DNA of 64,000 nt from assembly GCA_963169345.1 (NCBI GenBank), contig CAUJCT010000019.1, positions 105,366 through 169,365 of the forward strand, in the 5' to 3' direction. The notes under the pieces were generated by a model, which did not search any database, had not been told where the DNA came from, and was given only the letters and a program-made list of their open reading frames with translations. The position numbers were made by a program, and so were the translations under genes. This document shows, in pieces, positions 14,296 to 32,153 of this stretch (position 1 is the stretch's first letter; every line of letters begins with the position of its first letter). Source of the DNA: Bacteroidota bacterium (GTDB taxonomy: Bacteria > Bacteroidota > Bacteroidia > NS11-12g > UBA955).

Positions 14296-15150
14296 ATGAA
14301 AAAAGGAACAGTAGCCATAATACTCCTTGTCTTTAGCGTCCTATCTGGATTTGCTATTGGGGTCTTTAATGTGATAATGGATGACTCAATGGAAAATACG
14401 GAGTCAATAGAATCATATATGGAAGAAAATGATTCAAGTTATAAACGAGTAGATCCATTCGCAGCTTCGGAACTAATTTCAGTATTGAAAAAAATGAAAG
14501 AATCAAAAATTATTCATGCGAAATTTAATGTGAAGCTGTTTAGCATGGATCAAATGAAGCAGTTTGAATCTTTTGAAGGGGAGTACATTCGAAATGAAAT
14601 GGGTGAAACTTATATCTCTTCTTATGAATCTGAGAATTTAATGACTTCGGAATATTTTATTGCTGTTGATCACTTGGAGAAGATGATCTATGTTGAGAAA
14701 CCTGAATTTATGGGGTCTGGAGACGTTTCATCTATGAATATACTCTTCGAACTGGATTCTATTGTTAATTTTCAAGACAGTTCTATTGTTTACAATATGA
14801 TAGATGGTTCATATTCAAAATTGAGCGTCTTTATTGAAACACCCTCCTATTATCAGATTGACATAATTTATGAAACTGCAACAAAAAAAATTTCAAAGCT
14901 TGTTCTTTACCCGTTTCAAGATGTTTTTATTGAGCCTGAGTCTGGTGAAATCGGGAAAATTGAAGTAGAAAACACGGAAAATACTATTGTAGAAGAAGTT
15001 CCTGGACTCATTGTCATTGAATATACCAAACTAGAATGTAATTCGGAAATAAAACAACTAAAAATTGATTCTAAACGATATTTTGAAAATAAAGATGGAA
15101 AACTGGTAGTAAATCGTAAATACAAAAACTATGAAATCGATTACGAATAA
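14296..15150 (+). CDS. membrane-anchored hypothetical protein between the two giant genes
   Basis: 284 aa with N-terminal TM/signal (VAIILLVFSVLSGFAIGVF). It lies 2 nt after the upstream stop and overlaps the downstream giant ORF by 20 nt. Confidence 0.55.
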   Translation: MKKGTVAIILLVFSVLSGFAIGVFNVIMDDSMENTESIESYMEENDSSYKRVDPFAASELISVLKKMKESKIIHAKFNVKLFSMDQMKQFESFEGEYIRNEMGETYISSYESENLMTSEYFIAVDHLEKMIYVEKPEFMGSGDVSSMNILFELDSIVNFQDSSIVYNMIDGSYSKLSVFIETPSYYQIDIIYETATKKISKLVLYPFQDVFIEPESGEIGKIEVENTENTIVEEVPGLIVIEYTKLECNSEIKQLKIDSKRYFENKDGKLVVNRKYKNYEIDYE

Positions 15151-18100
15151 ATATTTAAGGAATTTAAGTAAATTAAAGTGGTTTGCCAACTTGGGTCCGA
15201 CAAATCAGATTCTATACAGATATCTAAGTTTGTTGAGTTTGCTGATATCCTCTTTCATTCCTATCTCTTCCAATGCTCAATTCATGCCGGAGAAATTTTC
15301 AAGCATATGTTCTGGAGAAAAGCTCAAGACAATTATTACATCCTCATCTTTGCCTTTGAAAATTGACAGTGTCATGGATGACAAGCTGACTATGATTGAA
15401 TCAGGTGGAGCATGGCGTTCTGATTTCAAGCATCGCAGCATAACCAATAGGATTACAATTTGTGTCAAGGATACGAATAGAGCAATGCAGAAATTCGACT
15501 ACCTTTTCAATCTGAGCATTGATACAATAAATTCCTTGAATCAGAAAGGAAGCTTCAATGTTGTCATGAGGGTTTCGTATGATCCAGCCTCTCATAAAGC
15601 CTATATGGATAAGTCAGTCTTTCAATTTATGGGATGTCATAAGTTTTCCATAAAACTGAATGGAATCACCGATAGTGCTTTGTTAAATCCTAGTTCATTT
15701 GACGCGGCCAGTATGCAGACAAATTTCTATATAGAATCAGAAATAATAATTGAGCGGTATTATTTGGATGCCTATTCTACGCCGATTGAAAGTTTAAATC
15801 ACTCTTTTGTAGGAAAGGACAGGTTGATGTTCTACTGGACACCACCGAGTTCAAGTGCACCTAACATGTACGAGTTGGAATGGACCTATATAGATACTGC
15901 TGGTATGGATCCTGATTCTATTCGATACGATTTTAACTCTAACAGTTCTCGGGTTTTATTGTCTCAGACAAGTTTTGAAATAAATACCATATACGATGCG
16001 GGTGTTATCTTATATAGGGTCAGACGAGTGCGCCCGGATTCCGTCTACTTCAAGTATAACAAATACAGCGATTGGTTTCCTATTGGGCTATCAGACAAAG
16101 GATTTGTCAGCGCATATTCAAGCAATAAGGTGTTTGTCGCTTCGCACGAACAAATGGGTAAGAATTGGGATTACCAGATTGCTTTCGCGGAAGAGGGATT
16201 GAAGAAAGAAGTTGTCAATTATTTTGATGGATCGCTTAAACGGAGGCAGGGAGTTACCTTGTCCAATAGCAATAATTTCACCTTGGTCGACGAAAGTATA
16301 TACGATTATCACGGCAGGGAGGTCATTAAGATAATACCGGCTCCAACAGATAGCGGCACAATAAAATTTTACAAGGATTTTAATTTGAATGTCTCAGGAC
16401 AACCCTACTCAGCGAGAGACTTTGACTCGACCGATGCCATGGAAGACCGTTGTAATGGGCAATACAAGGCTGCCCCTTTAGGTACTCAAAATGGCGCCGG
16501 AAGATATTATTCCACAGATAATCCGGATAAATCAAATGAGAACGCCGCCATACCGGATGCAGGAGGTTATCCCTTGGTCCAGACACAATTGATGCCTGAT
16601 CCGACAGGAAGGGTCGCCTCACAGGGCGGGATTGGGGTTGCGCATCAGTTAGGAAGTGGGCATGAGACCAAATACTCTTATGGAACTTCAACTCAAGAGG
16701 AACTTGACAAGATGTTCGGAAGTGAAATGGGGGTTGTTTCGCATTATAAGAAAAATTCCGTAACGGACCCAAATGGGCAAGTTAGTATTTCCTACATAGA
16801 TCAGCATGGGCGGGTCGTCGCCACATCTCTTGCAGGAGGTGTGCCAGGTATGGTTGATACGGTTGGATCCTACATGTGTGAAGAGTTCGTTATGAACAAG
16901 CTATCAAAAAATAATGTTCCAATCGACAATTCCTTGGTAGTAAGATACGGTTTTTCAGTTTTTGCAAGTCATGTCAACAAGATTTATTACAATCTTCAAA
17001 GCGACAAGTTCCTGTTCGGCTGTATTGGATTGAATCATTGCTATACGTGTAGGTATAATGTCGATATGTATCTGACAGACGACTGCGGAAACAATTTACT
17101 TCAATTCAACCGAATAATTGGCGTGCATCAGGATACGAGTTGTGGTATTCTCGAATTTACACTGGTCGATAGTATTGACGCGATACTTGGTAGTGTCAGT
17201 CCGAATTCGGATTCCGTGGCATTGACATTGACACCGGGAAATTATTTCTTGTATAAGGTGCTCAGAGTTAACACAGATTCTCTTGATTTCGCGATTGATG
17301 AGGTTTTGTTCAATGATTCCACATGTTACAAGACTATAGATGAGTTTATAGAGGTCGAACTGTCCAAGATTGATTTTAATGAATGTGATTGTGATACATG
17401 TGGCCTGGATTCCATGACCTATTGCGATTCGAGAAAAACGCTGATGCTAAGCGATTTTGAACCCTTGGTCGGTCAATTCGCACTCAACGATGAACTTGAT
17501 TATTCCGATTCCACGAGTATCTTGAGATACTACGGTGAAGGATATTTCTATCAATACGTAGATGCTAACGCCTATAAGGATGAGTATGGGGTCAAGGATA
17601 CAATCTGGATTGACGGTATGCCAATTCTACCAACTGAACTGGAGCCAGAAGATTTCACGAATTACTACAAGGAAACGTGGGGAGAGGCACTGTTGCCATA
17701 TCATCCTGAGTATTGTCAATACCGATACTGTATGGACTCTTTACAGCCAAGTTTATTGTTTGATGAAGACATGATGGCGATTGAAAACTATGACACGGCG
17801 ATGTTCTATGGATATTTGGATCCACTGAAATACAAGGCCGAATATCCCGATATAGTTTCAGATCCATTTTTTGTTAATTCTGGTGGGACGCTCAATTGGA
17901 GGGGGAATCAGATGAAGGATAAGTTGGAGTATATGGATGACTTCAGTCAGTCAGATTCCAATGATCCCCTGTCAATCGGCGCTTCGAGTAGTGATATCTG
18001 GCAGTTCTCAAAATCTATTGGGTATTGTGAAAGTATTTCTGACAGTCTTGAACGTGCGGAGTGCTTCAAGAACAGGTATGATGATCTGACCATCAACAAT

Positions 18101-21100
18101 TGGATGGACGATGAGTTTGGTAGAAATAATTATTGGAATAAATTCAAGACTTTGTATTTCCAACTAAAGCAACATTATATAGAGGAAAAAATGAATGAGT
18201 TGAGCTTCTCTATAGCCTGTATTCCTAAAATAGGCACAAACAATTGCCCGAGAAGTGAATACTACAATAAGGTTTCTCATTTCGTTCGGTACAATAACAA
18301 ATTGGCTAATGTGGATTCAACACCTAACAAGGAGGACTTGCTAGATTCCTTGAAAACTTATGGTTCTTGTGAAGCCAATATGCAACATTGGGAAGAGGCG
18401 TTAAGCCTTTGTGAGAATTTTTCCGTACACAAGGATTCAATACTATATTATTTTAAAAAGGTTTGCCAAGCAGGTGGGTCATCCCAATCTTCCTTAAATA
18501 TCATCGGTTCCAGTGAAATTCCGAGCAGTCTGCAGGGCAATCTTGCCTATAAATCATTTCACGAGGTGCTGGTTCACTTTCTTGGCTCCAATTATAAGAA
18601 TGAGTGGTGCAACATCGATTTGATCAATATGCCAAGGGCTTATAATACGAATTATCTGAACGAAGGGGGCTCTGAAGTGACAGAATGTCTTTGTGATAAT
18701 CTAAAACAAGAGATCAAGTTGTTCAAGGGTTGCCATTCTAAATTTGATTCTACGGAATTGAGCATAGAAGGCCATTTGGTAAACGATTTTATCAATACTA
18801 TGGTCGATGATAATCTATTCAATATCACCGATACGGCATCGAGAACATTATCTGCCTATGCAGGTATGGCGGATCTGGTCAATAGGTTGTTCGTCCCTAT
18901 AATGGGAGGTGTGCCGGGTAATTATAAGATTAAGATGCACAAAGATGCGGTCTACGGTAATGAAAAGTCGTATTTCATTTATAGAACCATACCATCTGAA
19001 GGATGCAAGTTCTCATTTAGATTAAATCCGAATGTCTCCAACTTTACGAATATTGATACGACTAAGTCATTTAAGATGACAGTGCGAAGCGATGGGTCTA
19101 TCAATTATAGATTCTACAAGTTTGGGGGGGCTACTGTCGACGTATTTGTTTACAACACCTGTTTTAATTCGTTAGGGAAATGTTCTGAAAATCTATCTTA
19201 TGCGGAGATATCTGATTTTACTGTTTTTTTAAATGACAAGTTTAACTCGAATATGACAGATATTGAAGTTGAACAACTTGTTGCCCAATGTGGAAATGCA
19301 GGATTGCCTAGTATTGTTCTGGATAAGAAAAACACCTACTATTTGCGTTATGGATCGTGTCCAGAGCATTACAGAAATTACAAGGAAGCAAAGGACATAT
19401 ACCTCCTGAGCTTCTTGAATGAAATGATGAGGCCTAATGAATATTGGCGTAATACGATGACTGGTTTTGAATTGGGAGACCAATCTAAACGTTATCTGAA
19501 TACCTACGAACCGAATTTTCACTGTAATTCTGGGAAGGCCGATTTTCTAGTACAGACAAAAGATTATCATTTGTATAAGGAGTTTGTAGGAACGATACAC
19601 GATAATTACTGGTGGGTTAATGCCAAATATGTTGTGGACAGTTCCCTCACTGTATTGGGCTGTACGAGTAGTTGTGTCAAGGTATATGATACCATCTTTC
19701 TAAATAATTATAACAACGACCCCTATTTCGTCGGTGGATTTTGGATTGGTGCACGTTGCGATTTGTATAAGGACTCGACTTGCTTTGTATCCTTTGGTGA
19801 TCCATTCAAGCAGCTGGGGTTAGCAGGAAGGCCTTCCATTTCACAAATTGATTCCCTGACTAATTACCGATGGGATGGATCGGTAGGGAATTATGTTGTT
19901 ACAGCGTTTAATAGAAGTTCAGGAGATTCGATTGTGCTGACTATGATGAACCAATGCAAGGCGCAGTGCAATCCATTGTTCAAAGTGAAGGACATTGCGG
20001 TGAATTACAAGGATGTATTTGCGATTCCAGGTAAAGGTGGTTTCGCCAGATTAAAGGATGTTACTGCGAGAACAGGTTTTGACAGGGGGTACGGTTGGCC
20101 ATTCCTGGATATGCTTAATGGACTTACAAAAGCGGATAATTTAAGTGGTGGAGCTATCAAGGATATACGAAAAATCCAGAAGACTCATTTGCTGAATAAT
20201 TATTTTGACCAGTTAATTCCAGAAGCTGGGTCATATTACTACAGCAACGAACTGACAAATGATAGCGTTCTTGTCGGTTACTTACAGGATAACATTGGGG
20301 CATCCTCAAAATGCAGTTTTGGCTTGAGAAAATGGGGAAGCGATAGGTCTTTTAGTTTCGCGGATTTGGATGTGTTCAAGGACATGACGGCCGATCCTGT
20401 TGCCATTGAAGATGGTATGAAAAACGAAAGGCTGGATATGGCAGGCTACTTCTTTGCCATTAAGGGGGGGCATCTGAATAGTCCTGGAGATACGACCTGG
20501 TACGATCTGAGAGGTTGGAGCTCTTGCTGGAAATTCTTTGAGATTAGCGCCCTGTCTGGTAATTCAAGAGTCATTTTCAATTTACCAGAGGGGTTGTCGG
20601 CCAATTGTGGATGTTACGCCTGTACGGAGACAAAATCGTTCTACGATAGCTTGTACAACGAATACCCTAATTTATATCCTGGGCATCCAAATTACGCTCA
20701 AATTGTTACAAATTATATCAATAGAAAACTCAATACAAGCCTGAGTTTCACCGAAATTCAGACGAATTGGGATGAATGTGGCGTTTCATTCAGACGGTTC
20801 ACTTCAATTCCTGAGTCGGATTATCGTTTATCGGTAAAAAACACCGATTGCGTCAACCATGGGGATAGCATGCTGTATGAACTGATGGATGATTTGGGTC
20901 TGTCCTTTGGTGTCACCAAGGTAAAGGATGAAGACAGTTCGGTGTTTCTTTTGAATTTCTCAGGATTGTTGCCAACGGAAATTGCCACGATCCAGGACTC
21001 AATAGCGAAATACTTCAGTTCTCCCTATTGCGATGCCTTTATACATTGGAAACATTATCGAAGCGATTACGATATGATCCTTTATAACCTGGATTCGGCA

Positions 21101-24100
21101 TCTACACTGGATCCGGATCAAAACCTTTCAGGATTTACAATTTGGTTCGCTTCGGTCAAGGAAAATTTGTTTGACAATTCATCGGACCTGATCCTATCAA
21201 GCTATGACGACATCAGTTACAGCGAAGACTTCTTTGCAACTGAAAACACCTCGAATTGGTACGCGAAAATCAAATTCCGTGATTTGGATGAAAAGTCCAG
21301 GACACGATTTGAGGACACATTGATTGCTTGGGTCAACTCATTCGGAGGTTTTGAACTAAAACGCTCGTATTATGTGCCGGAACTTTCCTTGCATGGGGAT
21401 AATCTTCAGATTTGTGTCGTTGATGGAGGAGATACCTTATGTACATATTGCGATAGTGTGAAGGCCTATGTCAGGGATTACCAATACAGCACATACGCCG
21501 ATTCTCTCAATGTACGATTAGCCATGAGCCCAGTCTACTTGGAGCCGTATCTGAAGTTAAAGACAGGCGTTGATGTGCAAGTGTTTGATGGGCCAGGAAC
21601 TTGCGTCAGTTGTGCAAACAAAAGCTTGTACATATGCGACCAGCCCGAACAAAAGCTTCTTGGTATAGTTGAACTATTAAACCGAATCGCCAAATTAAAA
21701 AAACTCAATTCGACGAATTACGCGTTAAATGCAAGTTTTACCACTTTGTTAAATTCCATCAAGCCTGAAGACATCGTGCTTAATTCACCTTCCTACAGTT
21801 ACAAGCCAAATACCCAGGGAGGTTGGCATGTAATGCTTAAATACAATACCACTTTTTCTGAAGTGTTGTTTTTAAGTATAGATACGAATGATTTTCAGAA
21901 AATATTCAATCCTGGCATCGATACATTCAAACAAATTCGTCCAATTTTGGAAGATGGTGTTGTCAGCGGGTTTAGTATTGAAGGCGTAGACAGCTTGTAC
22001 AACAGTCTGACATTCAATTGCTATATGAATGGACTCAAGGCCTACGCGTGTTGTGAATTGCCTGTAACTATGCTTTGTCCCAGACCTTTCACAAGGGAGT
22101 ATGACCAGTATGAATCACCATGCAAGCAGGAAGAAGTAGTACAGGCAGTAAATGCCGGTACTTTTAAGTATTACGCATATCTGGATTCCATTCGCAACGA
22201 TATCAAGATACGTTACCAGACCTTTTGCCTCACGCATGCCAAGGAAGATATTCGGATAGGTCATAACCAACACAGGTACCACAGTACCTTGTACTATTAC
22301 GACCAAGCTGGAAATCTGAGCAAGACGGTTCCTCCTCAAGGGGTCAATGAACTGGCCTTGTCAGCCCAAAGGTTGGATAGCCTGGAAGTCTATAGATCCA
22401 ACATCAACCGAAACGATAGTTTTGTAAATTCGAATCATACGATGTCGACCCTATACAGATATAACGCGTTGAACCAGTTGATCTGGCAAAAAACGCCTGA
22501 TGGCGGTGAATCAAATTTCTGGTACGACAGACTTGGAAGACTCGTGTTGAGTCAGAACGCGAACCAATTGGCCAGAAGTGGTGTTGCGCAAAAGATATAC
22601 AGTTATACCAAGTTTGATAATTTGGGAAGAATTTTGGAAGTAGGTGAAATTAGTAACAGGACGATCAGCCAGGATTCCCTAATCAGTGATTTGGAATATT
22701 ACGACTTTTGGTTATCAGGGTCACTTGCAAGGATTCAAATAACAAAGACTTTTTATGATTATCCAATAACAGAGTCTATTGACTTGATGTTTGTGGAAGG
22801 CCAGAGAAATTTGAGAGGACGCGTCGCTTCCATCTGTTATTACAACGCTTATGCTAGTGCCGATACTACCGCGTATACCCGGGCTACGCATTACAGTTAT
22901 GATATACACGGGAATGTGGATCATCTCGTGCAAGATTTTCCAGATATGGAATCTTTGGGGCATAGATACAAGCATCTTGCATATACGTACGACGTGATAA
23001 GCGGTAAGGTGCATTCGGTCGCCTATCAAGCTGGGCAAGCGGACCAATGGTTTCACCGCTATCAATACGATTCGGACAACAGGTTGGTGTTGGCCGAGAC
23101 CAGTGCCGATAGCGTGATATGGGATAAGGACGCCGAATACACCTATTACAAGCATGGGCCTATAGCCAGAACTATACTAGGAGAAAAAGCTGTGCAAGGT
23201 GTTGATTACGCCTACACCATTCATGGTTGGATTAAGGGCGTGAACAGCAATATCTTGAATCCAAGTTATGACATTGGCTCAGATGGATATTGCTACTTGA
23301 GAACCTATACGGCTAGAGATGCCTTCGGATACACTATAGGCTATTACAACGATATAGCTGGAAGTGTGTTTGATGGGGATTATAAGAGTATTGGAAGCAC
23401 CGGTTTTGAATCGGGTAAATCAGGCAGCCCTATAGGTACTACTAGTGGAAATTTGTACAACGGAAATATCAGCCACATGGTCAGTTCGGTAAATGTATTA
23501 TTAGCCATGAATGGAGGCAGTCCTTTGGCCACATCCTACCGATACGACCAGTTGAACCGGATAAAACAAGTACAAACCTATAATGGCATAGACCTGGATA
23601 GTAACAAGTGGGATCCAGGGAGCTTCCAAACAGCGTGGAATGAAAAGTTTGATTTTGATGCCAACGGCAACATCACCGGACTACTCAGGTATGGGGCGAG
23701 TACAGTTATGGACAAGCTTACTTATAATTACAAATCTGGCAATAACCAGTTAGTATCCGTGGATGATACAGTGAATGCCACTAGGTATTTAAGTGATGTG
23801 GACAACCAGATGGCTGGCAATTACCGTTACGACCATATTGGTAACTTGACACACGATTCTCTGGAACAGATTGATAGCATCTATTGGAATGTGTATGGGA
23901 AAATTTCGAAGATACAACGGGATGCGAATAGCACGAGGGCGAATCTTGATTTTCACTACGACGCGATGGGGCAACGGGTTCTGAAGATTGTGAAGAAAGG
24001 CGAACTGGAGAAGGACTGGCTGTACACCTGGTACGTACGTGACGCACAAGGTAACATCATTTCAACGTATACAAAAAAGAGTTATTTTGAGAATATTGGG

Positions 24101-26467
24101 GATACATCATTATACAGGCAAATCAATAACAGCCTGATCTCCCAGATGAATACCGACAGTCTGGCCAATTTCCTGAAAGAGAAATTCAAGGGGTCGCAAT
24201 TCGATGCCGCGTTGTCGGATGTAATTAATAATAGGGGCTTTTTAGAAGATTGGTACACGCTGTATGGTGGAGATAGCCTGTTAACTTATGACAGTTCATT
24301 CGCCCAGGATTTTTTCCAGTATTATTGCGATTATTATAATGATAACTCGGATAGGCAGGGGTTCTTTGATAAGCTTTGGGCAATAGGACAAGACAGCCTG
24401 ATTTCCTTGGTAGGTAAAGGCTGTTACAACCTCAACGATCTTATGACCGCTCTGCTCGGATACGACGGGTCTGACGAGATATTGAATGCTCTGGGTGCTA
24501 TCGACATATCAAGGGTGGAGCAAATCTATTACATGAGCGGTGGAATGCCTCCGGCCCCATCCTTGGCTACCATGATTGGTACTATTAGAAGTAATCCTGA
24601 CGCGGTTGTGGCAAATTCCATAACGAACTGGTTCAACATTTATGAGATCGAAAGCGTAATAAGAGGCTTGAGTTCAACATTAAGGGATAATGGATTTGCG
24701 GCTTATGACTTTTGTAACACAATGAGTCACCTGGCTGGTTGTGGATTCACTGACTACTGGTACGGTTATGTCTACGACCATGTGGATGAGGACACCTTTA
24801 AAAATATAATTTATCAGGTTTCCGAATCATCCTATCTGACATCCTTCTTATTGACTAAGGATATAATGGCAGTAAATAAACTCGCAAGTTTGCAAAGCGA
24901 CATCTTGTCAGACGCGTTGAGAGAATTTGATGGCTTGGATATTATGTCGTATTTAGGTTATATTTATAAACGCTTCGGTAAGAACATTTACAATCAAGTC
25001 ATTGAGGATTTAGGAGGCAATATTAAGATAATCAAGGCTTTGACATTAGATGAACAACATATTTACGGCTCCAGTAGACACGGCATCCGCAAGCCAAAGG
25101 CGGTTTTGGCAAGCAAGACGTACGAGTTGGAAGAGATCGGAGAAAACGGGGAATTATCCAGTATAGGATATTCCACAGACAGCACGATTTCTTGGTTGAA
25201 CTACAGATACTTTACCCGGACTTTGACCAAGAAACAATACGAGTTAAGCAACCACTTAGGAAATGTTTTGGCTACAATCTTGGATAGGAAGACGCCTGTA
25301 ATAGAAGAAGAAGGAGGCGATACGTTATTGTATTATATTGCTGATGTTAGTACCGCTCAATATTATTATGCCTTCGGGAGCGTAATTCAGGAGATGAAGT
25401 ACGCCCACGTGGAGGAGGGTGATACGGCTGGCTACATTTTTGGGTTTAATGGGAAAGAATATGATATTGAAACCAAATTACAAGATTATGGATTTAGAAT
25501 ATACAATAACGGAATTGGAAAGTTTCTTAGTGTAGACCCATTGACTGATGATTATCCATTTTATTCTCCTTATCATTTCGCAGGTAATACCCCAGTTTAT
25601 GCTATAGATATGGACGGGTTAGAGCCAATCCCTCCTAGAGTAATGTATGATCCGATTGGCGCGTTTTGTGATTGGATTTGGGGTGAAACTCCTGAAGAAA
25701 GAAAGAAGTCAATGGATTACATTAATTCGACTATGGGAATAGGGCCAGATCCTGAAGGAATTACTTATTCGAATTCAGAATTAACTTTTTGGGCTGGAGT
25801 TTCAATTTCAGCAAATTCATTAAATGATTATAATAATCTAACTTACAATCCGTTTGGTGCATCATCTAGATTTTCTGGTAGTACAGCCAAAACAAAACCT
25901 ACACCAACAAATTCTTCCAATTCTACTAAAAAGCCTTATTATAGCTCAAGTTCAAGCACAACCAAAACTAAATATGGTACAAGTACTTCAACTAAACCAG
26001 TACTTAAATATACTTCTACATATAGTAGCAAAGTAAATTCAAATATTGCATTTTCATATGGAATTAAATCCGCGTGGGCTTTAGACAAATCTGGGATGTA
26101 TACTCAAAGAGGTAGAAATTTGCAATCTCTAAATTCAAAATACATATACAAGCCTGCTGGATATAGGGATTTAGATGAATTTCATAATATCAATAATTTT
26201 GTACTTTTTGATTTTTATCATTTTGGAACTCAACATGCAGTTAGTTTTAAATCATGGGGAGGTAATACTTGGAATAAGTCGCTTTGGATTGGATATATTG
26301 ATAAAATCTCAAAAACAATTGGGACTACTCATAAAGGATATTTTATTCAATCAGCATCACTTGATGTTGTTGTACCTAATGATGCTGCCAAGCAAAAATT
26401 AGAATCTGAATTAGATGCATATGCAAAGAAAAATAATGTAAAATTAAATATTACAGTTCAAAATTAA
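15131..26467 (+). CDS. giant (3,778 aa) RHS/YD-repeat polymorphic toxin (TcC/Rhs-like) with ~2,370-aa Cys-rich N-terminal extension, RHS core and variable C-terminal toxin tip
   Basis: Many YD repeats (YYYDQAGNL, YRYNALNQL, WYDRLGRLV, YTYDVISGKV, YQYDSDNRLV, YRYDQLNRI, YRYDHIGNL, FHYDAMGQRV). RHS core signature (GKFLSVDPLTDDYPFYSPYHFAGNTPVYAIDMDGL) parallels Rhs GRFISQDP…YxYxxNNPVxxVDPLGL. Confidence 0.85.
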   Translation: MKSITNKYLRNLSKLKWFANLGPTNQILYRYLSLLSLLISSFIPISSNAQFMPEKFSSICSGEKLKTIITSSSLPLKIDSVMDDKLTMIESGGAWRSDFKHRSITNRITICVKDTNRAMQKFDYLFNLSIDTINSLNQKGSFNVVMRVSYDPASHKAYMDKSVFQFMGCHKFSIKLNGITDSALLNPSSFDAASMQTNFYIESEIIIERYYLDAYSTPIESLNHSFVGKDRLMFYWTPPSSSAPNMYELEWTYIDTAGMDPDSIRYDFNSNSSRVLLSQTSFEINTIYDAGVILYRVRRVRPDSVYFKYNKYSDWFPIGLSDKGFVSAYSSNKVFVASHEQMGKNWDYQIAFAEEGLKKEVVNYFDGSLKRRQGVTLSNSNNFTLVDESIYDYHGREVIKIIPAPTDSGTIKFYKDFNLNVSGQPYSARDFDSTDAMEDRCNGQYKAAPLGTQNGAGRYYSTDNPDKSNENAAIPDAGGYPLVQTQLMPDPTGRVASQGGIGVAHQLGSGHETKYSYGTSTQEELDKMFGSEMGVVSHYKKNSVTDPNGQVSISYIDQHGRVVATSLAGGVPGMVDTVGSYMCEEFVMNKLSKNNVPIDNSLVVRYGFSVFASHVNKIYYNLQSDKFLFGCIGLNHCYTCRYNVDMYLTDDCGNNLLQFNRIIGVHQDTSCGILEFTLVDSIDAILGSVSPNSDSVALTLTPGNYFLYKVLRVNTDSLDFAIDEVLFNDSTCYKTIDEFIEVELSKIDFNECDCDTCGLDSMTYCDSRKTLMLSDFEPLVGQFALNDELDYSDSTSILRYYGEGYFYQYVDANAYKDEYGVKDTIWIDGMPILPTELEPEDFTNYYKETWGEALLPYHPEYCQYRYCMDSLQPSLLFDEDMMAIENYDTAMFYGYLDPLKYKAEYPDIVSDPFFVNSGGTLNWRGNQMKDKLEYMDDFSQSDSNDPLSIGASSSDIWQFSKSIGYCESISDSLERAECFKNRYDDLTINNWMDDEFGRNNYWNKFKTLYFQLKQHYIEEKMNELSFSIACIPKIGTNNCPRSEYYNKVSHFVRYNNKLANVDSTPNKEDLLDSLKTYGSCEANMQHWEEALSLCENFSVHKDSILYYFKKVCQAGGSSQSSLNIIGSSEIPSSLQGNLAYKSFHEVLVHFLGSNYKNEWCNIDLINMPRAYNTNYLNEGGSEVTECLCDNLKQEIKLFKGCHSKFDSTELSIEGHLVNDFINTMVDDNLFNITDTASRTLSAYAGMADLVNRLFVPIMGGVPGNYKIKMHKDAVYGNEKSYFIYRTIPSEGCKFSFRLNPNVSNFTNIDTTKSFKMTVRSDGSINYRFYKFGGATVDVFVYNTCFNSLGKCSENLSYAEISDFTVFLNDKFNSNMTDIEVEQLVAQCGNAGLPSIVLDKKNTYYLRYGSCPEHYRNYKEAKDIYLLSFLNEMMRPNEYWRNTMTGFELGDQSKRYLNTYEPNFHCNSGKADFLVQTKDYHLYKEFVGTIHDNYWWVNAKYVVDSSLTVLGCTSSCVKVYDTIFLNNYNNDPYFVGGFWIGARCDLYKDSTCFVSFGDPFKQLGLAGRPSISQIDSLTNYRWDGSVGNYVVTAFNRSSGDSIVLTMMNQCKAQCNPLFKVKDIAVNYKDVFAIPGKGGFARLKDVTARTGFDRGYGWPFLDMLNGLTKADNLSGGAIKDIRKIQKTHLLNNYFDQLIPEAGSYYYSNELTNDSVLVGYLQDNIGASSKCSFGLRKWGSDRSFSFADLDVFKDMTADPVAIEDGMKNERLDMAGYFFAIKGGHLNSPGDTTWYDLRGWSSCWKFFEISALSGNSRVIFNLPEGLSANCGCYACTETKSFYDSLYNEYPNLYPGHPNYAQIVTNYINRKLNTSLSFTEIQTNWDECGVSFRRFTSIPESDYRLSVKNTDCVNHGDSMLYELMDDLGLSFGVTKVKDEDSSVFLLNFSGLLPTEIATIQDSIAKYFSSPYCDAFIHWKHYRSDYDMILYNLDSASTLDPDQNLSGFTIWFASVKENLFDNSSDLILSSYDDISYSEDFFATENTSNWYAKIKFRDLDEKSRTRFEDTLIAWVNSFGGFELKRSYYVPELSLHGDNLQICVVDGGDTLCTYCDSVKAYVRDYQYSTYADSLNVRLAMSPVYLEPYLKLKTGVDVQVFDGPGTCVSCANKSLYICDQPEQKLLGIVELLNRIAKLKKLNSTNYALNASFTTLLNSIKPEDIVLNSPSYSYKPNTQGGWHVMLKYNTTFSEVLFLSIDTNDFQKIFNPGIDTFKQIRPILEDGVVSGFSIEGVDSLYNSLTFNCYMNGLKAYACCELPVTMLCPRPFTREYDQYESPCKQEEVVQAVNAGTFKYYAYLDSIRNDIKIRYQTFCLTHAKEDIRIGHNQHRYHSTLYYYDQAGNLSKTVPPQGVNELALSAQRLDSLEVYRSNINRNDSFVNSNHTMSTLYRYNALNQLIWQKTPDGGESNFWYDRLGRLVLSQNANQLARSGVAQKIYSYTKFDNLGRILEVGEISNRTISQDSLISDLEYYDFWLSGSLARIQITKTFYDYPITESIDLMFVEGQRNLRGRVASICYYNAYASADTTAYTRATHYSYDIHGNVDHLVQDFPDMESLGHRYKHLAYTYDVISGKVHSVAYQAGQADQWFHRYQYDSDNRLVLAETSADSVIWDKDAEYTYYKHGPIARTILGEKAVQGVDYAYTIHGWIKGVNSNILNPSYDIGSDGYCYLRTYTARDAFGYTIGYYNDIAGSVFDGDYKSIGSTGFESGKSGSPIGTTSGNLYNGNISHMVSSVNVLLAMNGGSPLATSYRYDQLNRIKQVQTYNGIDLDSNKWDPGSFQTAWNEKFDFDANGNITGLLRYGASTVMDKLTYNYKSGNNQLVSVDDTVNATRYLSDVDNQMAGNYRYDHIGNLTHDSLEQIDSIYWNVYGKISKIQRDANSTRANLDFHYDAMGQRVLKIVKKGELEKDWLYTWYVRDAQGNIISTYTKKSYFENIGDTSLYRQINNSLISQMNTDSLANFLKEKFKGSQFDAALSDVINNRGFLEDWYTLYGGDSLLTYDSSFAQDFFQYYCDYYNDNSDRQGFFDKLWAIGQDSLISLVGKGCYNLNDLMTALLGYDGSDEILNALGAIDISRVEQIYYMSGGMPPAPSLATMIGTIRSNPDAVVANSITNWFNIYEIESVIRGLSSTLRDNGFAAYDFCNTMSHLAGCGFTDYWYGYVYDHVDEDTFKNIIYQVSESSYLTSFLLTKDIMAVNKLASLQSDILSDALREFDGLDIMSYLGYIYKRFGKNIYNQVIEDLGGNIKIIKALTLDEQHIYGSSRHGIRKPKAVLASKTYELEEIGENGELSSIGYSTDSTISWLNYRYFTRTLTKKQYELSNHLGNVLATILDRKTPVIEEEGGDTLLYYIADVSTAQYYYAFGSVIQEMKYAHVEEGDTAGYIFGFNGKEYDIETKLQDYGFRIYNNGIGKFLSVDPLTDDYPFYSPYHFAGNTPVYAIDMDGLEPIPPRVMYDPIGAFCDWIWGETPEERKKSMDYINSTMGIGPDPEGITYSNSELTFWAGVSISANSLNDYNNLTYNPFGASSRFSGSTAKTKPTPTNSSNSTKKPYYSSSSSTTKTKYGTSTSTKPVLKYTSTYSSKVNSNIAFSYGIKSAWALDKSGMYTQRGRNLQSLNSKYIYKPAGYRDLDEFHNINNFVLFDFYHFGTQHAVSFKSWGGNTWNKSLWIGYIDKISKTIGTTHKGYFIQSASLDVVVPNDAAKQKLESELDAYAKKNNVKLNITVQN
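25622..26464 (+). other. C-terminal variable toxin tip (~281 aa) of the RHS protein downstream of the DMDGL core boundary
   Basis: Sequence after DMDGL(EP) has a Ser/Thr/Lys-rich linker then a ~150-aa domain I cannot assign. Local AT content rises sharply relative to the RHS repeat region. Confidence 0.6.
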
Positions 26468-26473
26468 ATATAT

Positions 26474-27307
26474 TTGAAAAATTTATCATTTTCAAAACGC
26501 AAAATAAATAACCAAATGACTATACTTGAAGCATTAGAAAAATGTGATAAGAAGCTTGAGTTTCATTTTTCATTTGATCTCAAAACAAATTATAATGAGT
26601 TAGTTTTATATATTTTATACACTAACCCGTTAAAATTAAGAATGGATTTGATGTCAATTTCTGGATATGTAGAAGATGCGCCAATAATAGAATCTGAACT
26701 TAAAGGCTATTTATATGAAACAGAAGAAAGATCATATCAGTTTTATGACAAAGAAAAACAAGTTGAATATATGATTATGAGAAATTATCATAAAGCAGGT
26801 GGTTCTTATCAACTTTATGTAACAATAAATACTACAAAATTTGAATATACCCCGAGTTTTGAGTGGATATCGGATCTTTATTCTAAATTTCCTTTCATAA
26901 TTGGTTATGTATATGACCAATTGTTTGTAGATTTTCAATCTTCTACTCAGCCTATCATAATGAGAGTAAATCATATTGACCCTGGAGAATACAGCCATTT
27001 GGTTTCTATAAATGCTATAGGTCATGAATCTTTAGATGTTTCTAGGAATTATGGGCGAAAATGCCTTGTAGGTTCACTTTGGCTAATGGCTTCCTGGCAA
27101 ATGTTTATTACTAGTCGTTTTGAAGAAAAGCTTGGATCAAAATTTATCTCCCCCCAAAATGTTAAGGTTTTATATAATAATGAATTTAGAGTTATTCAAC
27201 TTTATGATAATCCCTTTGAAAGTCATTTAAAAGAGAATTTAGATAAATTAAAAGCAATTCGAGATTTAAATCATTTTGATGAAATTGAATACAGAGACAA
27301 TAAATAA
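26474..27307 (+). CDS. putative cognate immunity protein of the RHS toxin tip
   Basis: 277-aa ORF starting 7 nt after the toxin stop and sharing its AT-rich composition. Assigned by the polymorphic toxin/immunity positional rule only. Confidence 0.5.
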   Translation: MKNLSFSKRKINNQMTILEALEKCDKKLEFHFSFDLKTNYNELVLYILYTNPLKLRMDLMSISGYVEDAPIIESELKGYLYETEERSYQFYDKEKQVEYMIMRNYHKAGGSYQLYVTINTTKFEYTPSFEWISDLYSKFPFIIGYVYDQLFVDFQSSTQPIIMRVNHIDPGEYSHLVSINAIGHESLDVSRNYGRKCLVGSLWLMASWQMFITSRFEEKLGSKFISPQNVKVLYNNEFRVIQLYDNPFESHLKENLDKLKAIRDLNHFDEIEYRDNK

Positions 27308-27869
27308 AACCAAACTAAACAAACGATTATTTTGGATTAAATTTCTTTCCTTAATTTACATTACTTTTTCGATTTGTCTGATTTTAGGATTGGAATTAAG
27401 GTTGTCTGAATTTATCCAAGGATTATTGTTTATTCTTGTTTTTAACCTAATTATAAAATCAGTACAATTAAGAAGGTTGATTGAATATCTTTTTTATACA
27501 TACATTGTTTACAATATTACTGAATATATAATTTTAAGATTTTATTTTAAACTGCAACTATTATATATTCTTGAGTTCATTAAATGGTTTCTTTTATCTA
27601 TTCTTGGATTATCTCTTTTTAAAACATCTTTTAAGATTTATGGAATTTCAATATTGCTAAGTTCTATACTACTAGTTGTTGCTCCAATTGTATATGCAAA
27701 TTTAGTTAAAATTGGTTTTGTAGAAATTAATCTAATGTCAAAAAGAATTATTTTTATTTTTCTCGAAGTTGTAATGTTGATTCCTTTTTGCATTTTGATC
27801 TTTCTCTCAAGTTCGCAAAAAAAAGTTGTAAAGTATATTTTAGATGATAATATAAATTTAGATGGTTGA
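27276..27869 (+). CDS. polytopic membrane protein (possible second immunity or accessory protein, could be spurious in AT-rich DNA)
   Basis: 197 aa with ~5 hydrophobic segments. It overlaps the putative immunity gene by 32 nt. Confidence 0.35.
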   Translation: MMKLNTETINKTKLNKRLFWIKFLSLIYITFSICLILGLELRLSEFIQGLLFILVFNLIIKSVQLRRLIEYLFYTYIVYNITEYIILRFYFKLQLLYILEFIKWFLLSILGLSLFKTSFKIYGISILLSSILLVVAPIVYANLVKIGFVEINLMSKRIIFIFLEVVMLIPFCILIFLSSSQKKVVKYILDDNINLDG

Positions 27870-27973
27870 CTGAAATAGAATAATTATTTGAATGAATTCT
27901 AAATATATATAAGCAATAGTTCTTGTATTTTAATTTTCAATTCCTAACTTTTAACATAGCAAACTAAAACTTC

Positions 27974-30370
27974 ATGCGCATACTCTTTACATTTGCATGT
28001 CTCATTTATGGAAACATAACCTATACACAGGAAATCTTATACTCATTTGACAGTTGCAAGAATGATTTCGGAGCAAATTCATCAAGTTTTGAATATAATT
28101 TCTCAGGTTGTCAGAACAAAAATAGTCAATCTTCATCAGGTAAGACTAGACTAGATCTTAGGTCATTCACCGACAGCCTTAAACTGAAAAATTCGGTTAA
28201 AACAAGCACTGATAATAGCAATGACTATGGAAACAGGATTTTTAACTTTCCGAGACTCACTTACGATTGGTTGAAAAATGAACTTCCCAAGGGCAATGAT
28301 CTTCTAAAGTTTTCTATGAACATGCGCTCAGAAAACTTTGGTACCACATCTCAAAATCCAATGATTAGAAGTGAGCTTATGTACAGTAGATTGTATTTGA
28401 GCCCTACTTTCACTGTTTTGGGACTTCCCTTTACTTCTAATCTGTTTTTTACCACCGAAGCCAACAATACCTATAAAAATAATTTCTTTTCATTCAGGTT
28501 GGATGTGAATGCTTTGAGAAGAATAGCTCAGGAAAGACTCAGAAAGGAAGTTGAGCAAGCAAAAAAGCTGGATAGGTCTAGGCAGCTAGAACTCAATAAG
28601 CAGGCACTTGAAACCAAAAAATACCAGCAGGAGCTTGATAAGGTGGAGTCGGAAATGAATGAATACAAGCAGTGGAATTCGCAGATTCAGAATCAAGCTC
28701 AATTAAAGTCCAAGGCGTATTTGGATAAAGAAAGAGCCCAACTCGAAGAGCAACTTAAAACAGCTTCAGACGAGCAGAAAGAGCAGATGATAGCAGCGTA
28801 CAATCAAAAATCTGATTCGGTACAAAATGCTCTGAGGTCTCAACTTGAAGACTCTGCGGCAAAGTTAAAAGGCACCATGCCCAATTTGGATACATCCAAA
28901 CTCAACAGAATAAACAGGCTCAAAACAAAGATGGAACAACTCAATCAGAGGGCTAAAGAAATTGAGAGTTTAAGACAAAAGGACACATTGGGACTGTCGG
29001 AAAAAGCAGAAGGGTTGCGACATCCTGAGAAATTGAAATCCATGACCCAAGGTCAGTTACCCGGAAAAGGACTAATGAACCGGTTCTTGTCGGTAGACAG
29101 ACTCGGGGTAGGTTTAATTGCACCTATGTATTCAGAGTTCACTTTGAGTGCTGCATCTGTTAAAGGTTTGGACATAGGTGTTTCAAAAACCAATTGGTAT
29201 TACGATATCAGTCTGGGAAGAATGACCAAACAGTTTACCGGCCCATTTTCATCTGTTCAACCTGAATATGACCGAAACATGGCTATAGCCAGAATTGGAC
29301 TTGGAGAAAGAAACAATGCGCATTTAGCTGTAGAATATTTCAGTGCCTTTGACACAAAAGTGACAGACAGCATGTCTCCAATGGTAAACAATGGGGTACT
29401 TGCATTGGAATTTAAATATGTTTTCTTAAAGCATTTAACAGTAGATGGTGATTTGGCTCAAAGTAATTACAAAGAAAAATTCAACAGTCTAAATATTTCT
29501 TCGTCTTCTAATTCAAGCAATTCGATATTCAATATCAGAGACAGCAGAGCATACCGGTTAAAGGCTACACAAGAGGCTGGCAAAAACACAAAGCTGCAGG
29601 TTGAAGCCAGGCAAGTAGGAGCAGCCTTCAGGTCATTGGGTAACCCCTTTTTAAGAAGAAATTTTAGAGAAATCGATGCCAGACTGGAACAAAGTTTCTA
29701 TAAAAAGCAGATACTCTTGCAAGCCAATTACAAAGAGATGCGAGATAATGTTCTGGAATTGAATCAGGCCACCAACAGACTGAAAGGTTGGGGTATCAAA
29801 CTACAAACCGCATTTGAAAAATGGCCTAACCTGACTTTAAGTCACAGCCCATACCAGCAAGGCAATAACCATCCGGATAGCTTATACAGAACCAACAATC
29901 AGTTTTCTATTTCCATGGCAATGCTCACCTACAAAAAGCGATTCAAGGGTCTTAACTGGAATATGATGGCTTGTGCCACCAGGTCAGCCATGGAGATATA
30001 CGGCAGAGGTCCTGTTGACTATAGAATGCTGACGATAACCAATATGGTTCAATTAGGCTTAAGACACAACATCATGTTGAATTACATGTCCAACACAACA
30101 CTGCCTGGAGTAGATTCATTGAACTCAAATTCCATACAATTCAATTATATTTACCTGGCTAAAAAAGGATTTACTATTGGCACAATAGGAGAACATACAA
30201 TTTACAAAAATCAGGCATTCAGATCAGGGGGCGGATTAACAGCGAGTGCCAATTTAATTAAGAATCTTTCATTGTCGGCTCTAGTTCGCTACGATAAAAT
30301 TGATGGATTATGGCGATTAGAGAATCAGGATGTTTGGACCGGAAGGCTTGTGCTTTTATGGAGTTGGTGA
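27974..30370 (+). CDS. outer-membrane beta-barrel-like protein with long Q/E/K-rich coiled-coil insert
   Basis: 798 aa with signal peptide, ~160-aa coiled-coil segment (residues ~180-340) and C-terminal aromatic-terminated strand (…LVLLWSW). Confidence 0.5.
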   Translation: MRILFTFACLIYGNITYTQEILYSFDSCKNDFGANSSSFEYNFSGCQNKNSQSSSGKTRLDLRSFTDSLKLKNSVKTSTDNSNDYGNRIFNFPRLTYDWLKNELPKGNDLLKFSMNMRSENFGTTSQNPMIRSELMYSRLYLSPTFTVLGLPFTSNLFFTTEANNTYKNNFFSFRLDVNALRRIAQERLRKEVEQAKKLDRSRQLELNKQALETKKYQQELDKVESEMNEYKQWNSQIQNQAQLKSKAYLDKERAQLEEQLKTASDEQKEQMIAAYNQKSDSVQNALRSQLEDSAAKLKGTMPNLDTSKLNRINRLKTKMEQLNQRAKEIESLRQKDTLGLSEKAEGLRHPEKLKSMTQGQLPGKGLMNRFLSVDRLGVGLIAPMYSEFTLSAASVKGLDIGVSKTNWYYDISLGRMTKQFTGPFSSVQPEYDRNMAIARIGLGERNNAHLAVEYFSAFDTKVTDSMSPMVNNGVLALEFKYVFLKHLTVDGDLAQSNYKEKFNSLNISSSSNSSNSIFNIRDSRAYRLKATQEAGKNTKLQVEARQVGAAFRSLGNPFLRRNFREIDARLEQSFYKKQILLQANYKEMRDNVLELNQATNRLKGWGIKLQTAFEKWPNLTLSHSPYQQGNNHPDSLYRTNNQFSISMAMLTYKKRFKGLNWNMMACATRSAMEIYGRGPVDYRMLTITNMVQLGLRHNIMLNYMSNTTLPGVDSLNSNSIQFNYIYLAKKGFTIGTIGEHTIYKNQAFRSGGGLTASANLIKNLSLSALVRYDKIDGLWRLENQDVWTGRLVLLWSW

Positions 30371-30449: not shown

Positions 30450-32153
30450 ATGAAATCAAAAATTAAAACCTTAACTATTTGCGTTTGTGCTTTTTTTACA
30501 TTGAATTCGAACGCACAGAAATGGACCAGAACACTAACCACATCAAATCCGGAGAATGAAGTTGGGATACTAAAGACAAACGATGGCTCAGGATCGTTGA
30601 TCAATGTGTGCAATGTAACTGTAAACGGCCAGAGTGACTTCGTGATCTCAAAGCTAAACAGCGATGGCACAATCAATTGGTCTTACACTTATACGATGAG
30701 TAATGCAAGTGAAGTTATCAATAGTTTTATCCTGGACAGGAACAACGACATAGTCCTTGTCGGATCCACAAATTCTTCTGGGGTTCAAAAAGGGTTGGTG
30801 TTGAAAGTGGATCACACGAATGGTAACATCTTGTTTTCATATAGGACTCAATCAAGTGGTAATAGTGCATATATAAGAAAAGTCATCCAAATGAACTCTG
30901 GTTATTCAGATGATTATGTGATATTGGGAACTGTGAACTATCCTGTAACCAATCTTGTAGCAAGAATAGATGGAAATAATGGCGCAACTATATGGGCGCA
31001 CAATCATAATGTAGTATTGGGGAATACAGATCTTTGGTATACTTTAAATCAAGTCAATAATAATGATATTGTCATTGGAGGGGGCCTGTACAATGGATCA
31101 AATAACGATCATGCTGTCATACATTTGAATCCGTCGAATGGCGGAAGAATTATTATTAAGAGATGGAATATCACGAATGGAACAGCTGCAAATGGCGGAT
31201 TTGATGATGCAGTTGTAATACCGGGGACAGATACTTTGGTCTTAGCATTTGTCCAAAATGGTGGCGGAGCTGCTACAAAGCATGGTTTCGCTATATATGA
31301 TGCTGGAGCTAAGAATCTTGTTTCAGCGAATATCAATTATTTGGGAAGTACAAACACAAGGGCGTTGCGAATAGATTTCAATTCTGACAAACGCGAGCTT
31401 ATGATTGGTGGAGTTTCAGGTGCAACATATAATGATCATTTCATCCAACTGGTTGATATTGATAGCAAGTTGATAAAGTCTTCAGGTAAGTTCGATGGAA
31501 CTATTAACCGTTCAGCATTCAAATTGGCTAATACTTGGGTGAGTTATATTTCTACAAACCAATTCGTGCTAGGTAATACGGTAATCCCGCTAGGCACGTA
31601 TCCGAACGGAAATGAAGTCGTCATATCAATGGTAGGCGGCCCTTTTGTGAGCTGTTACGATAGCATTGATATCTCTAATGACACGTTAGTGATACCAAAT
31701 TCATTCACGACCACCATGGATTCGACGAACCAGACTATAGATTCCGTTAGCTTTAGCAGGGACACCTTTCAGTTTAATGATACATTGCGATGCTATTCCG
31801 ATCAGGATTTAATAAGAAGAGCCCGTTCAAACCAGTACTTGTCCGGAGAGTACGAAAACACGGTCTTCCCATTCCCATTAACAGGCTTACTTAAAGAGGA
31901 GATGCTGACTTTTGAGGTCTATCCGAATCCAAGCAATGGCGCACAAAGCTTGATCTTGGATATTAATAATCTGCTAAATCTTGAAACTATTGTGACAATT
32001 TATGATGCTCAAGGAAACATGGTGTATACCAGCACTATTCCAGGAGATTCATTGAATGTTGATGTCGACGTCAGCATATTAGAAAAAGGTCTATATATTA
32101 TTAAATTAAGCAATTCTCAAAACTCGAGTTATTCGAAAATTCAAATAAATTAG
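30450..32153 (+). CDS. secreted beta-rich protein with T9SS (Por) C-terminal sorting domain
   Basis: Signal peptide. C-terminal FEVYPNPSNGAQSLILD…GLYIIKLSNSQNSSYSKIQIN matches T9SS type-A CTD. Confidence 0.7.
   Translation: MKSKIKTLTICVCAFFTLNSNAQKWTRTLTTSNPENEVGILKTNDGSGSLINVCNVTVNGQSDFVISKLNSDGTINWSYTYTMSNASEVINSFILDRNNDIVLVGSTNSSGVQKGLVLKVDHTNGNILFSYRTQSSGNSAYIRKVIQMNSGYSDDYVILGTVNYPVTNLVARIDGNNGATIWAHNHNVVLGNTDLWYTLNQVNNNDIVIGGGLYNGSNNDHAVIHLNPSNGGRIIIKRWNITNGTAANGGFDDAVVIPGTDTLVLAFVQNGGGAATKHGFAIYDAGAKNLVSANINYLGSTNTRALRIDFNSDKRELMIGGVSGATYNDHFIQLVDIDSKLIKSSGKFDGTINRSAFKLANTWVSYISTNQFVLGNTVIPLGTYPNGNEVVISMVGGPFVSCYDSIDISNDTLVIPNSFTTTMDSTNQTIDSVSFSRDTFQFNDTLRCYSDQDLIRRARSNQYLSGEYENTVFPFPLTGLLKEEMLTFEVYPNPSNGAQSLILDINNLLNLETIVTIYDAQGNMVYTSTIPGDSLNVDVDVSILEKGLYIIKLSNSQNSSYSKIQIN

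Follow-up and report, generated by a model that had tools for sequence, protein, structure and literature searches.

The C-terminal region of Rhs proteins acts as an aspartyl autoprotease at a PxxxxDPxGL-type motif, and in RhsA the two catalytic aspartates (D1324 and D1346) are spaced by 22 residues (PMC8765631). In a published model, the variable tips that follow this motif move attached to fragments of the conserved core, through homologous recombination (PMC2935791). Among the C-terminal toxins of CdiA (CdiA-CT), those of EC869(o11)/TA271 and YpIII are Zn-dependent PD-(D/E)xK DNases with the catalytic residues Glu177, Asp198, Ser209 and Lys211, and the PD-(D/E)xK CdiA-CT group as a whole includes tRNases as well as DNases, whose active sites are alike (PMC9086364). 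Here we describe an RHS polymorphic-toxin gene in a 64,000-nucleotide stretch of DNA from a Bacteroidota bacterium (contig CAUJCT010000019.1, positions 105,366 to 169,365; this whole stretch is referred to as the window). The gene, found in the list of open reading frames (ORFs) and their translations, encodes 3778 aa (window positions 15131..26467, on the + strand, as are all window features below unless noted). We propose that this Bacteroidota-type RHS protein probably carries a polymorphic-toxin cassette, made up of a PD-(D/E)xK nuclease tip and a 263-aa immunity partner, that was swapped in at a point within the core.

The tip consists of the last 281 residues of the protein (aa 3498-3778). 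An earlier note on this DNA, made from the letters alone, had divided it into a linker, a Ser/Thr/Lys-rich stretch and a terminal domain, and we recover the same three parts as a linker, a Ser/Thr/Lys/Pro-rich spacer of 67 residues and a 145-aa end domain (aa 3634-3778, 26030..26464). The note went on to call the tip unassignable and possibly a novel effector. This view is not supported, since the end domain is a remote homologue, and probably a sister lineage, of the EC869-like family of CdiA-CT PD-(D/E)xK DNases, as judged from profile comparisons and a structural model. In Pfam the domain matched PF21111 (CDI_toxin_EC869_like) with an E-value of 0.024 and 15.3 bits, from position 21 to the end of the 123-position model. 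When 1.84 billion representative proteins were searched exhaustively with HMMER, only two relatives came up: P0004 (158 aa, 33% identity, E 2.7e-4) and P0003 (77 aa, E 9.8e-6), the latter 49% identical in a match confined to the C-terminal half. The apparent rarity of the module is to be read as a lower bound, because the protein searches missed the window's own 3778-aa protein, which is present in the collection (as a singleton cluster), and because both matches are short ORFs; this suggests that tips on very long full-length RHS proteins are under-sampled by such searches.

A profile built from these three members found the CdiA-CT of Yersinia pseudotuberculosis YPIII (PDB chain 4zqu_A, E 0.067) in third rank below unrelated proteins, in an alignment that pairs the Asp and the SxK motif; the top match, RIB57, was judged spurious. 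For comparison by hhalign, six EC869-like toxins encoded on Salmonella, Sulfitobacter, Proteus and Ralstonia plasmids were gathered by tblastn. The toxin-domain family aligned to these six with a probability of 94.4% (E 9.4e-8, 89 columns), and a low-stringency alignment was collinear over 125 columns. The real score of 49.0 compares with 12.5±2.7 (maximum 18.7) in forty column shuffles and 13.5 for the reversed alignment, and unrelated-family controls gave probabilities of 0.2-1.0%. An AlphaFold2 model from the three-sequence alignment had a mean pLDDT (predicted local distance difference test score) of 53; its C-terminal half reached 62-85, whereas its N-terminal half stayed below 50. Foldseek placed 4zqu_A first (probability 1.00) and 4g6u_A second (0.99) when this model was compared with 350,542 chains; because the model is of low confidence, we regard these matches as supportive rather than decisive. 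Each of these lines is modest alone, and the strength of the nuclease assignment lies in their mutual agreement together with the negative controls. Searches of NCBIfam, PADLOC and the PDB with the sequence of the tip or domain gave nothing meaningful; phmmer of the whole tip against the PDB returned only low-complexity noise, in which the Ser/Thr stretch hit antibody light chains. The 145-aa domain drew no homologue in a word-index search, and the three-member profile recovered its own members only. The toxin and immunity alignments had no match in viral contigs, tblastn of both proteins had none in plasmids, and a metagenome scan recovered nothing beyond a second copy of the P0003 locus.

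The domain shares with the EC869(o11)/TA271 and YPIII toxins (4G6U, 4ZQU; PF21111) a predicted PD-(D/E)xK core, with similarity running collinearly from the N-terminal helix to the C-terminal strand, and a position as the C-terminal payload of a polymorphic toxin that is followed by an immunity gene. Three of the four catalytic residues are kept: by hhalign D3694 (26210-26212), S3705 (26243-26245) and K3707 (26249-26251) align with D198, S209 and K211, and the spacing D-x10-S-x-K across 26210..26251 is identical to that of the EC869-like DNases. The full catalytic set of PF21111 is not present, however, since low-stringency hhalign and joint MAFFT alignments place Q3665 (CAA, 26123..26125) at the position of Glu177. 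The domain also differs from its described counterparts in being only ~19-28% identical to them, in having a hairpin region that is 6 residues shorter, and in its carrier, which is a Bacteroidota RHS protein rather than a proteobacterial CdiA two-partner-secretion (TPS) protein. The shortened region is presumably the equivalent of the protruding hairpin that contacts CdiI in 4G6U. The carrier is thus not of the CdiA/CdiB type, and haemagglutinin or TPS domains were absent from the ORFs scanned.

Several observations weigh against reading the tip as an active DNase with a dedicated immunity protein. The PF21111 score falls short of the gathering threshold of 27 bits, and P0004 alone gives no PF21111 match. 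In the AlphaFold2 model, with its mean of 53, the half that holds the catalytic residues is the one below pLDDT 50, and a single-sequence structure model of the 263-aa protein is unusable (pLDDT 39). Gln stands where Glu177 is expected, while P0004 keeps the Glu; the domain may be attenuated, may employ another acidic residue, or may have changed its metal or its substrate. Because the wider PD-(D/E)xK CdiA-CT group includes tRNases, DNA is a substrate that we infer. Finally, the secretion apparatus could not be assigned, and genes for a type VI secretion system (T6SS), for Tc components or for CdiB were not seen in the window.

The alternative that best survives, although we consider it unlikely, is that the nuclease-fold tip is inactive or nearly so through the Glu-to-Gln change, and that it is a decaying or detoxified module beside which the immunity gene merely persists. 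In the alignments Q3665 stands opposite both Glu177 of the EC869-like family and the Glu that P0004 has there, and its CAA codon is one base from GAA. The same CAA occurs on independent metagenome contigs, one of which (L001) is 100% identical to the window across the codon, so that Q3665 is not a one-off read error. Natural inactivation at this codon has occurred elsewhere: the Sulfitobacter plasmids NZ_CP084956.1 (L010) and NZ_CP136685.1 (L012) hold orphan EC869-like toxins, adjoining annotated contact-dependent growth inhibition (CDI) immunity genes, with an in-frame stop exactly at the Glu177 codon (...GGPW*DHL..., ~nt 73-75 of each locus), where the window's tip has Gln. Against decay, the domain is complete and keeps its remaining three catalytic residues, the 3778-aa frame is open, and the immunity gene is intact and tightly linked. 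Moreover, the N-terminal helix is where the alignment is least certain (low hhalign confidence), the loop after Q3665 offers the acidic residues D3680, D3682 and E3683, and PD-(D/E)xK enzymes tolerate variation at the acidic position of helix 1.

We also think it rather improbable that RNA instead of DNA is the substrate of this PD-(D/E)xK enzyme, for example specific tRNAs as with the CdiA-CT of Burkholderia 1026b and E479. DNases and tRNases with similar active sites belong to the same CdiA-CT superfamily, and both the Gln at the Glu position and the 6-residue-shorter hairpin region indicate that the surroundings of the active site differ from those of the known DNases. Nevertheless, every sequence and fold match lies on the DNase branch (4zqu, 4g6u, PF21111), the tRNase structures 4g6v and 5j4a are absent from the top matches, and the window domain has the Ser-x-Lys of the DNase branch, the Ser of which is replaced by Asp in the 1026b tRNase.

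The second component of the cassette is the ORF that follows the RHS gene. The earlier note had proposed an adjacent immunity gene of 277 aa, from position 26474 (a TTG codon); the ORF is a good candidate for this role, with its most likely start at ATG 26516 (263 aa, 26516..27307), because the homologue begins at the aligned Met. So delimited, it begins 48 nt past the RHS stop codon and encodes a predicted cytoplasmic protein without a hydrophobic segment. Each of the two toxin-domain relatives, which occur in two unrelated loci, is followed immediately by a homologue of this ORF, and the identities of toxin and immunity protein shift in parallel: 49% and 54% at the P0003 locus (L004), 33% and 23% at the P0004 locus (L003). 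At L004, of which L008 is a duplicate, all that is left of the toxin (P0003) is a C-terminal remnant of 77-90 aa without the catalytic half, and the 54%-identical immunity homologue overlaps its end and is itself truncated by the end of the contig. This pairing of remnant and immunity homologue is, on its gene layout, a classic orphan arrangement, of the kind that the earlier note had suggested looking for. At L003, P0004 forms the tip encoded by a further RHS gene, in which the upstream frame ends ...YSPYAFSGNRVTDAIELEGAEP and the tip resumes in a second frame. Given the linkage in three contexts, the toxin remnant beside an immunity homologue and the parallel divergence, together with the low G+C content at third codon positions (GC3) that the gene shares with the tip, we regard the 263-aa protein as the probable cognate immunity protein, of an undescribed family.

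Both loci show further features. At L003 the tip (459-1172) is frame-shifted from the core and the immunity homologue (1191-1931) has an in-frame stop at 1371-1373; the contig has a coverage of ~2x, and the frame change and stop could be assembly errors or signs of a decaying locus. In L004 (164-5054) the pair adjoins a lipoprotein gene and lies near an integrase/primase element with an integrase, an HTH_17 gene and a VapE-like primase. An integrase with the same architecture (Arm-DNA-bind_5, Phage_int_SAM_5, Phage_integrase) is encoded in the window at 51117-52340 on the - strand, ~24 kb downstream of the cassette.

The 263-aa protein had no match in Pfam, NCBIfam, PADLOC or the PDB; a word-index search with the ORF found only itself, and a scan of genome contigs with the immunity alignment found nothing. 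Its family is unrelated to the three CdiI proteins that adjoin EC869-like toxins (hhalign probability 0.4%), than which it is ~90 residues longer. The tip thus proves homologous to a characterised nuclease and the downstream ORF does not prove homologous to that nuclease's known immunity protein, although the earlier note had coupled the two in stating what would tell against it. Since the families are unrelated, the mode of inhibition probably differs from that of CdiI, and because relatives are lacking in Pfam and the PDB the family would represent a new inhibitor fold for a PD-(D/E)xK nuclease.

A third ORF (27279-27869), recognised by translation and hydropathy, encodes a multi-pass membrane protein of 196 aa, overlaps the immunity gene by 29 nt and is also called as a gene on independent metagenome contigs. 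It had no family match in Pfam, NCBIfam or PADLOC, and could be an additional or orphan immunity protein. It is highly unlikely, in our judgement, that the 263-aa protein is not the immunity protein and that protection comes from this membrane protein or from neither. The membrane ORF does have the composition of the cassette, a small membrane ORF also follows the L003 pair, and the 263-aa protein matches no known immunity family and has yielded no usable structure model. Yet only the 263-aa family is kept beside the toxin domain in all three loci, the orphan locus included; the two membrane ORFs are dissimilar, and a kinship between them was rejected on comparison; and a soluble cytoplasmic binder, such as the 263-aa protein appears to be, is what would be expected for a cytoplasmic nuclease. 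We give least credence of all to the view that the tip is a truly novel effector domain whose EC869-like signals combine chance with structure-predictor bias, for which the weak single-sequence signals (the Pfam E-value, and a PDB profile match ranked only third), the low mean pLDDT and the mere two sequence relatives can be cited, with the concordance of the separate lines and the negative controls standing on the other side.

The core of the RHS protein supplies the boundary of the tip. TIGR03696 (NCBIfam Rhs_assc_core) matched aa 3412-3497 (25364..25621) over its full length (model 1-76/76; 47.7 bits against a cutoff of 32.5), and the core end reads ...YHFAGNTPVYAIDMDGL, with L3497 at nt 25619-25621 and the tip starting at nt 25622. 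In agreement with the earlier note, which had placed the core end at a variant of the autoproteolysis motif, P3488-VYAI-D3493-M-D-G-L3497 is a variant of PxxxxDPxGL with Met for Pro at one position. The candidate catalytic aspartates, D3469 and D3493 as read from the sequence, are 24 residues apart.

The G+C profile that the earlier note had called for shows the AT-rich shift it described. G+C is 0.40-0.48 in the RHS body, drops from ~25550 to 0.25-0.33 over the tip and the downstream ORF, reaches its lowest value (0.217) at 27350-27800 and recovers past ~27950. The shift is visible at third codon positions and is therefore not driven by amino-acid composition: GC3 is 0.448 in the RHS body (0.385-0.515 per 600 nt), 0.191 in the linker, 0.151 in the toxin domain, 0.189 in the 263-aa ORF, 0.187 in the membrane ORF and 0.406 in the next gene (RHS body against tip, Fisher's test, p = 4e-21). 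Low GC3 thus runs through two downstream ORFs and returns to higher values at 27974; the AT-rich segment that the note had extended over the tip and one downstream ORF takes in the third ORF as well. The remaining genes of the window have GC3 values of 0.20-0.43, the cassette being the lowest and the RHS body the highest.

By maximum likelihood the best GC3 change point is nt 25456 (codon 3442; interval 25426..25546; log-likelihood ratio 55), with GC3 of 0.494 before and 0.175 after it. This point lies ~55 codons upstream of the DMDGL boundary, within the core domain, and is probably the recombination junction of the swapped cassette; its position fits the published model in which tips travel with linked core fragments. 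The earlier note had seen in the shift the signature of a swapped cassette. A compositionally distinct cassette of the C-terminal-displacement type is indeed present, but the drop does not single out this locus: among the 60 comparator Bacteroidota RHS genes with sufficient sequence the tip GC3 was on average 0.22 below that of the body, more than 0.1 below in 88% and more than 0.25 below in 40%, so that the window's drop of ~0.30 is typical of the class.

To obtain these comparators, species-representative genomes were scanned with the core-end alignment; 549 relatives were found, of which 79 loci (L018-L096) were kept. Nearly all are labelled Bacteroidota (Chitinophagaceae, Flavobacteriales, Sphingobacteriales, Saprospiraceae and others), with a few other labels, and the closest core identity among them is 55%. 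They hold ~150 core ends, each followed by a tip of ~200-300 aa, all different. The form PYQFAGNxPIxAxDLDG(L/A/G)E is the rule in these ~150 Bacteroidota core ends. The window protein resembles such Bacteroidota DUF6443-RHS proteins in its core-end motif, in the length of its tip and in the fall of GC3 at the tip. It differs in its payload, as the toxin domain and immunity family were found in none of the 79 loci: profiles of the toxin domain, the immunity protein and the EC869-like toxins had no match among the ~150 comparator tips and their flanking ORFs, and the window's tip as a whole is unlike all of these tips. In many comparators (e.g. L021, L078) up to six orphan core-fragment and tip modules are arrayed downstream of the main gene. 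The window holds a single core end, with no orphan core or tip module elsewhere in it.

The order of parts in the RHS protein is a signal-peptide-like (Sec-type) N-terminus, DUF6443, YD/RHS repeats, the Rhs-associated core and the tip. DUF6443 (PF20041) lies at aa 353-431 and scored 43.7 bits against a cutoff of 27.8 when aa 1-600 were scanned alone, and 22 bits in the scan of the whole protein, in which PF05593 (RHS_repeat) matched with an E-value of 8.6e-7. A single RHS repeat at aa 543-570 is followed by ~1700 Cys-rich residues without a family match, and the repeats return only at ~aa 2290 (window 15131-22000), from where YD repeats can be seen by eye. The protein owes its unusual length of 3778 aa to this Cys-rich stretch, which precedes the return of the YD repeats. 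Like the Rhs/YD-repeat toxins with C-terminal displacement (the enterobacterial rhs products, the T6SS protein RhsA of Pseudomonas protegens and TcC of Tc toxins), it has YD repeats, a core with a PxxxxDPxGL-type end and a variable tip of ~30 kDa; an immunity gene follows, and the composition breaks close to where core and tip join. Unlike all of these, it combines a Sec-type signal with DUF6443, lacks PAAR, VgrG and TcB partners, ends its core in DMDGL rather than DPxGL, contains the ~1700 Cys-rich residues and has no orphan tip array downstream.

Two further parts of the tip precede the toxin domain. The N-terminal linker (aa 3498-3572, 25622..25846) is without relatives, with no match in Pfam or NCBIfam, nor by phmmer against the ~150 comparator tips. 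A composition scan defines the low-complexity spacer (aa 3573-3639, tip aa 76-142, 25847..26047), whose 67 residues include 18 S, 13 T and 9 K. A DNA tandem repeat was considered as its basis and rejected, as none was detected. Comparable low-complexity stretches follow the core in some comparators, e.g. L024 and L070.

If the protein works as characterised Rhs proteins do, its YD-repeat shell would enclose the C-terminal 281 residues, and the core, acting as an aspartyl protease, would cut after L3497 in ...PVYAIDMDGL. The freed tip would then enter a neighbouring bacterium, where the nuclease domain would kill by attacking nucleic acid in the cytoplasm, with DNA as the most probable target. 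In the producer the 263-aa cytoplasmic protein would bind and neutralise the toxin, as its conserved linkage suggests. The tip would have arrived on a core fragment inserted by homologous recombination in the conserved core (C-terminal displacement), leaving low GC3 (~0.17) at about nt 25456-27950 between flanks of 0.41-0.49.

If this reading holds, a tip that had seemed unassignable now has a place in a characterised nuclease superfamily. An EC869-type DNase module, known from proteobacterial CdiA, would have been taken up by RHS carriers of Bacteroidota and paired there with another immunity partner, adding one more case in which delivery systems exchange toxin domains and immunity proteins independently of each other. 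This leaves the general view of polymorphic toxins as it was: the weapon is of a kind ordinary in bacteria, and its payload is rare.

Two ORFs immediately upstream of the RHS gene bear on how the toxin might be delivered. A 2392-aa ORF (7115-14293, +), with a signal-like N-terminus and, close to its C-terminal end, a YD-like 'YEYDNEGSLIRV', directly precedes the LolA3-like and RHS genes. It had no match in Pfam or NCBIfam even when scanned in pieces of 500-700 aa, and the idea that it is a paralogue of the RHS protein was rejected on comparison; it may be a delivery partner. The 284-aa ORF that follows (14296-15150, +) has a sub-threshold match to LolA3 (NF053579, 50.8 bits where the cutoff is 83, E 1.5e-13), and because it shares 20 nt with the start of the RHS gene the two are probably co-translated in one operon. 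A more speculative reading, which we hold doubtful when taken whole, would join these observations: the toxin would belong to a Bacteroidota-specific sister lineage of the EC869-like nucleases, with an unrelated, larger immunity protein of new fold and a Glu-to-Gln change that reflects an altered metal need or substrate rather than decay, and the locus, with the 2392-aa protein and the LolA3-like gene, would be part of an uncharacterised RHS delivery route without T6SS or Tc partners.

Downstream, the cassette is directly followed by a 798-aa ORF (27974-30370, +) without a family match. Beyond it lies the gene for a 567-aa protein (30450-32153, +) with a C-terminal sorting domain of the type IX secretion system (T9SS; Por_Secre_tail, E 4e-11), and further T9SS cargo is encoded in the window at 39182-42103 (PKD and CHU_C) and 55655-57265.

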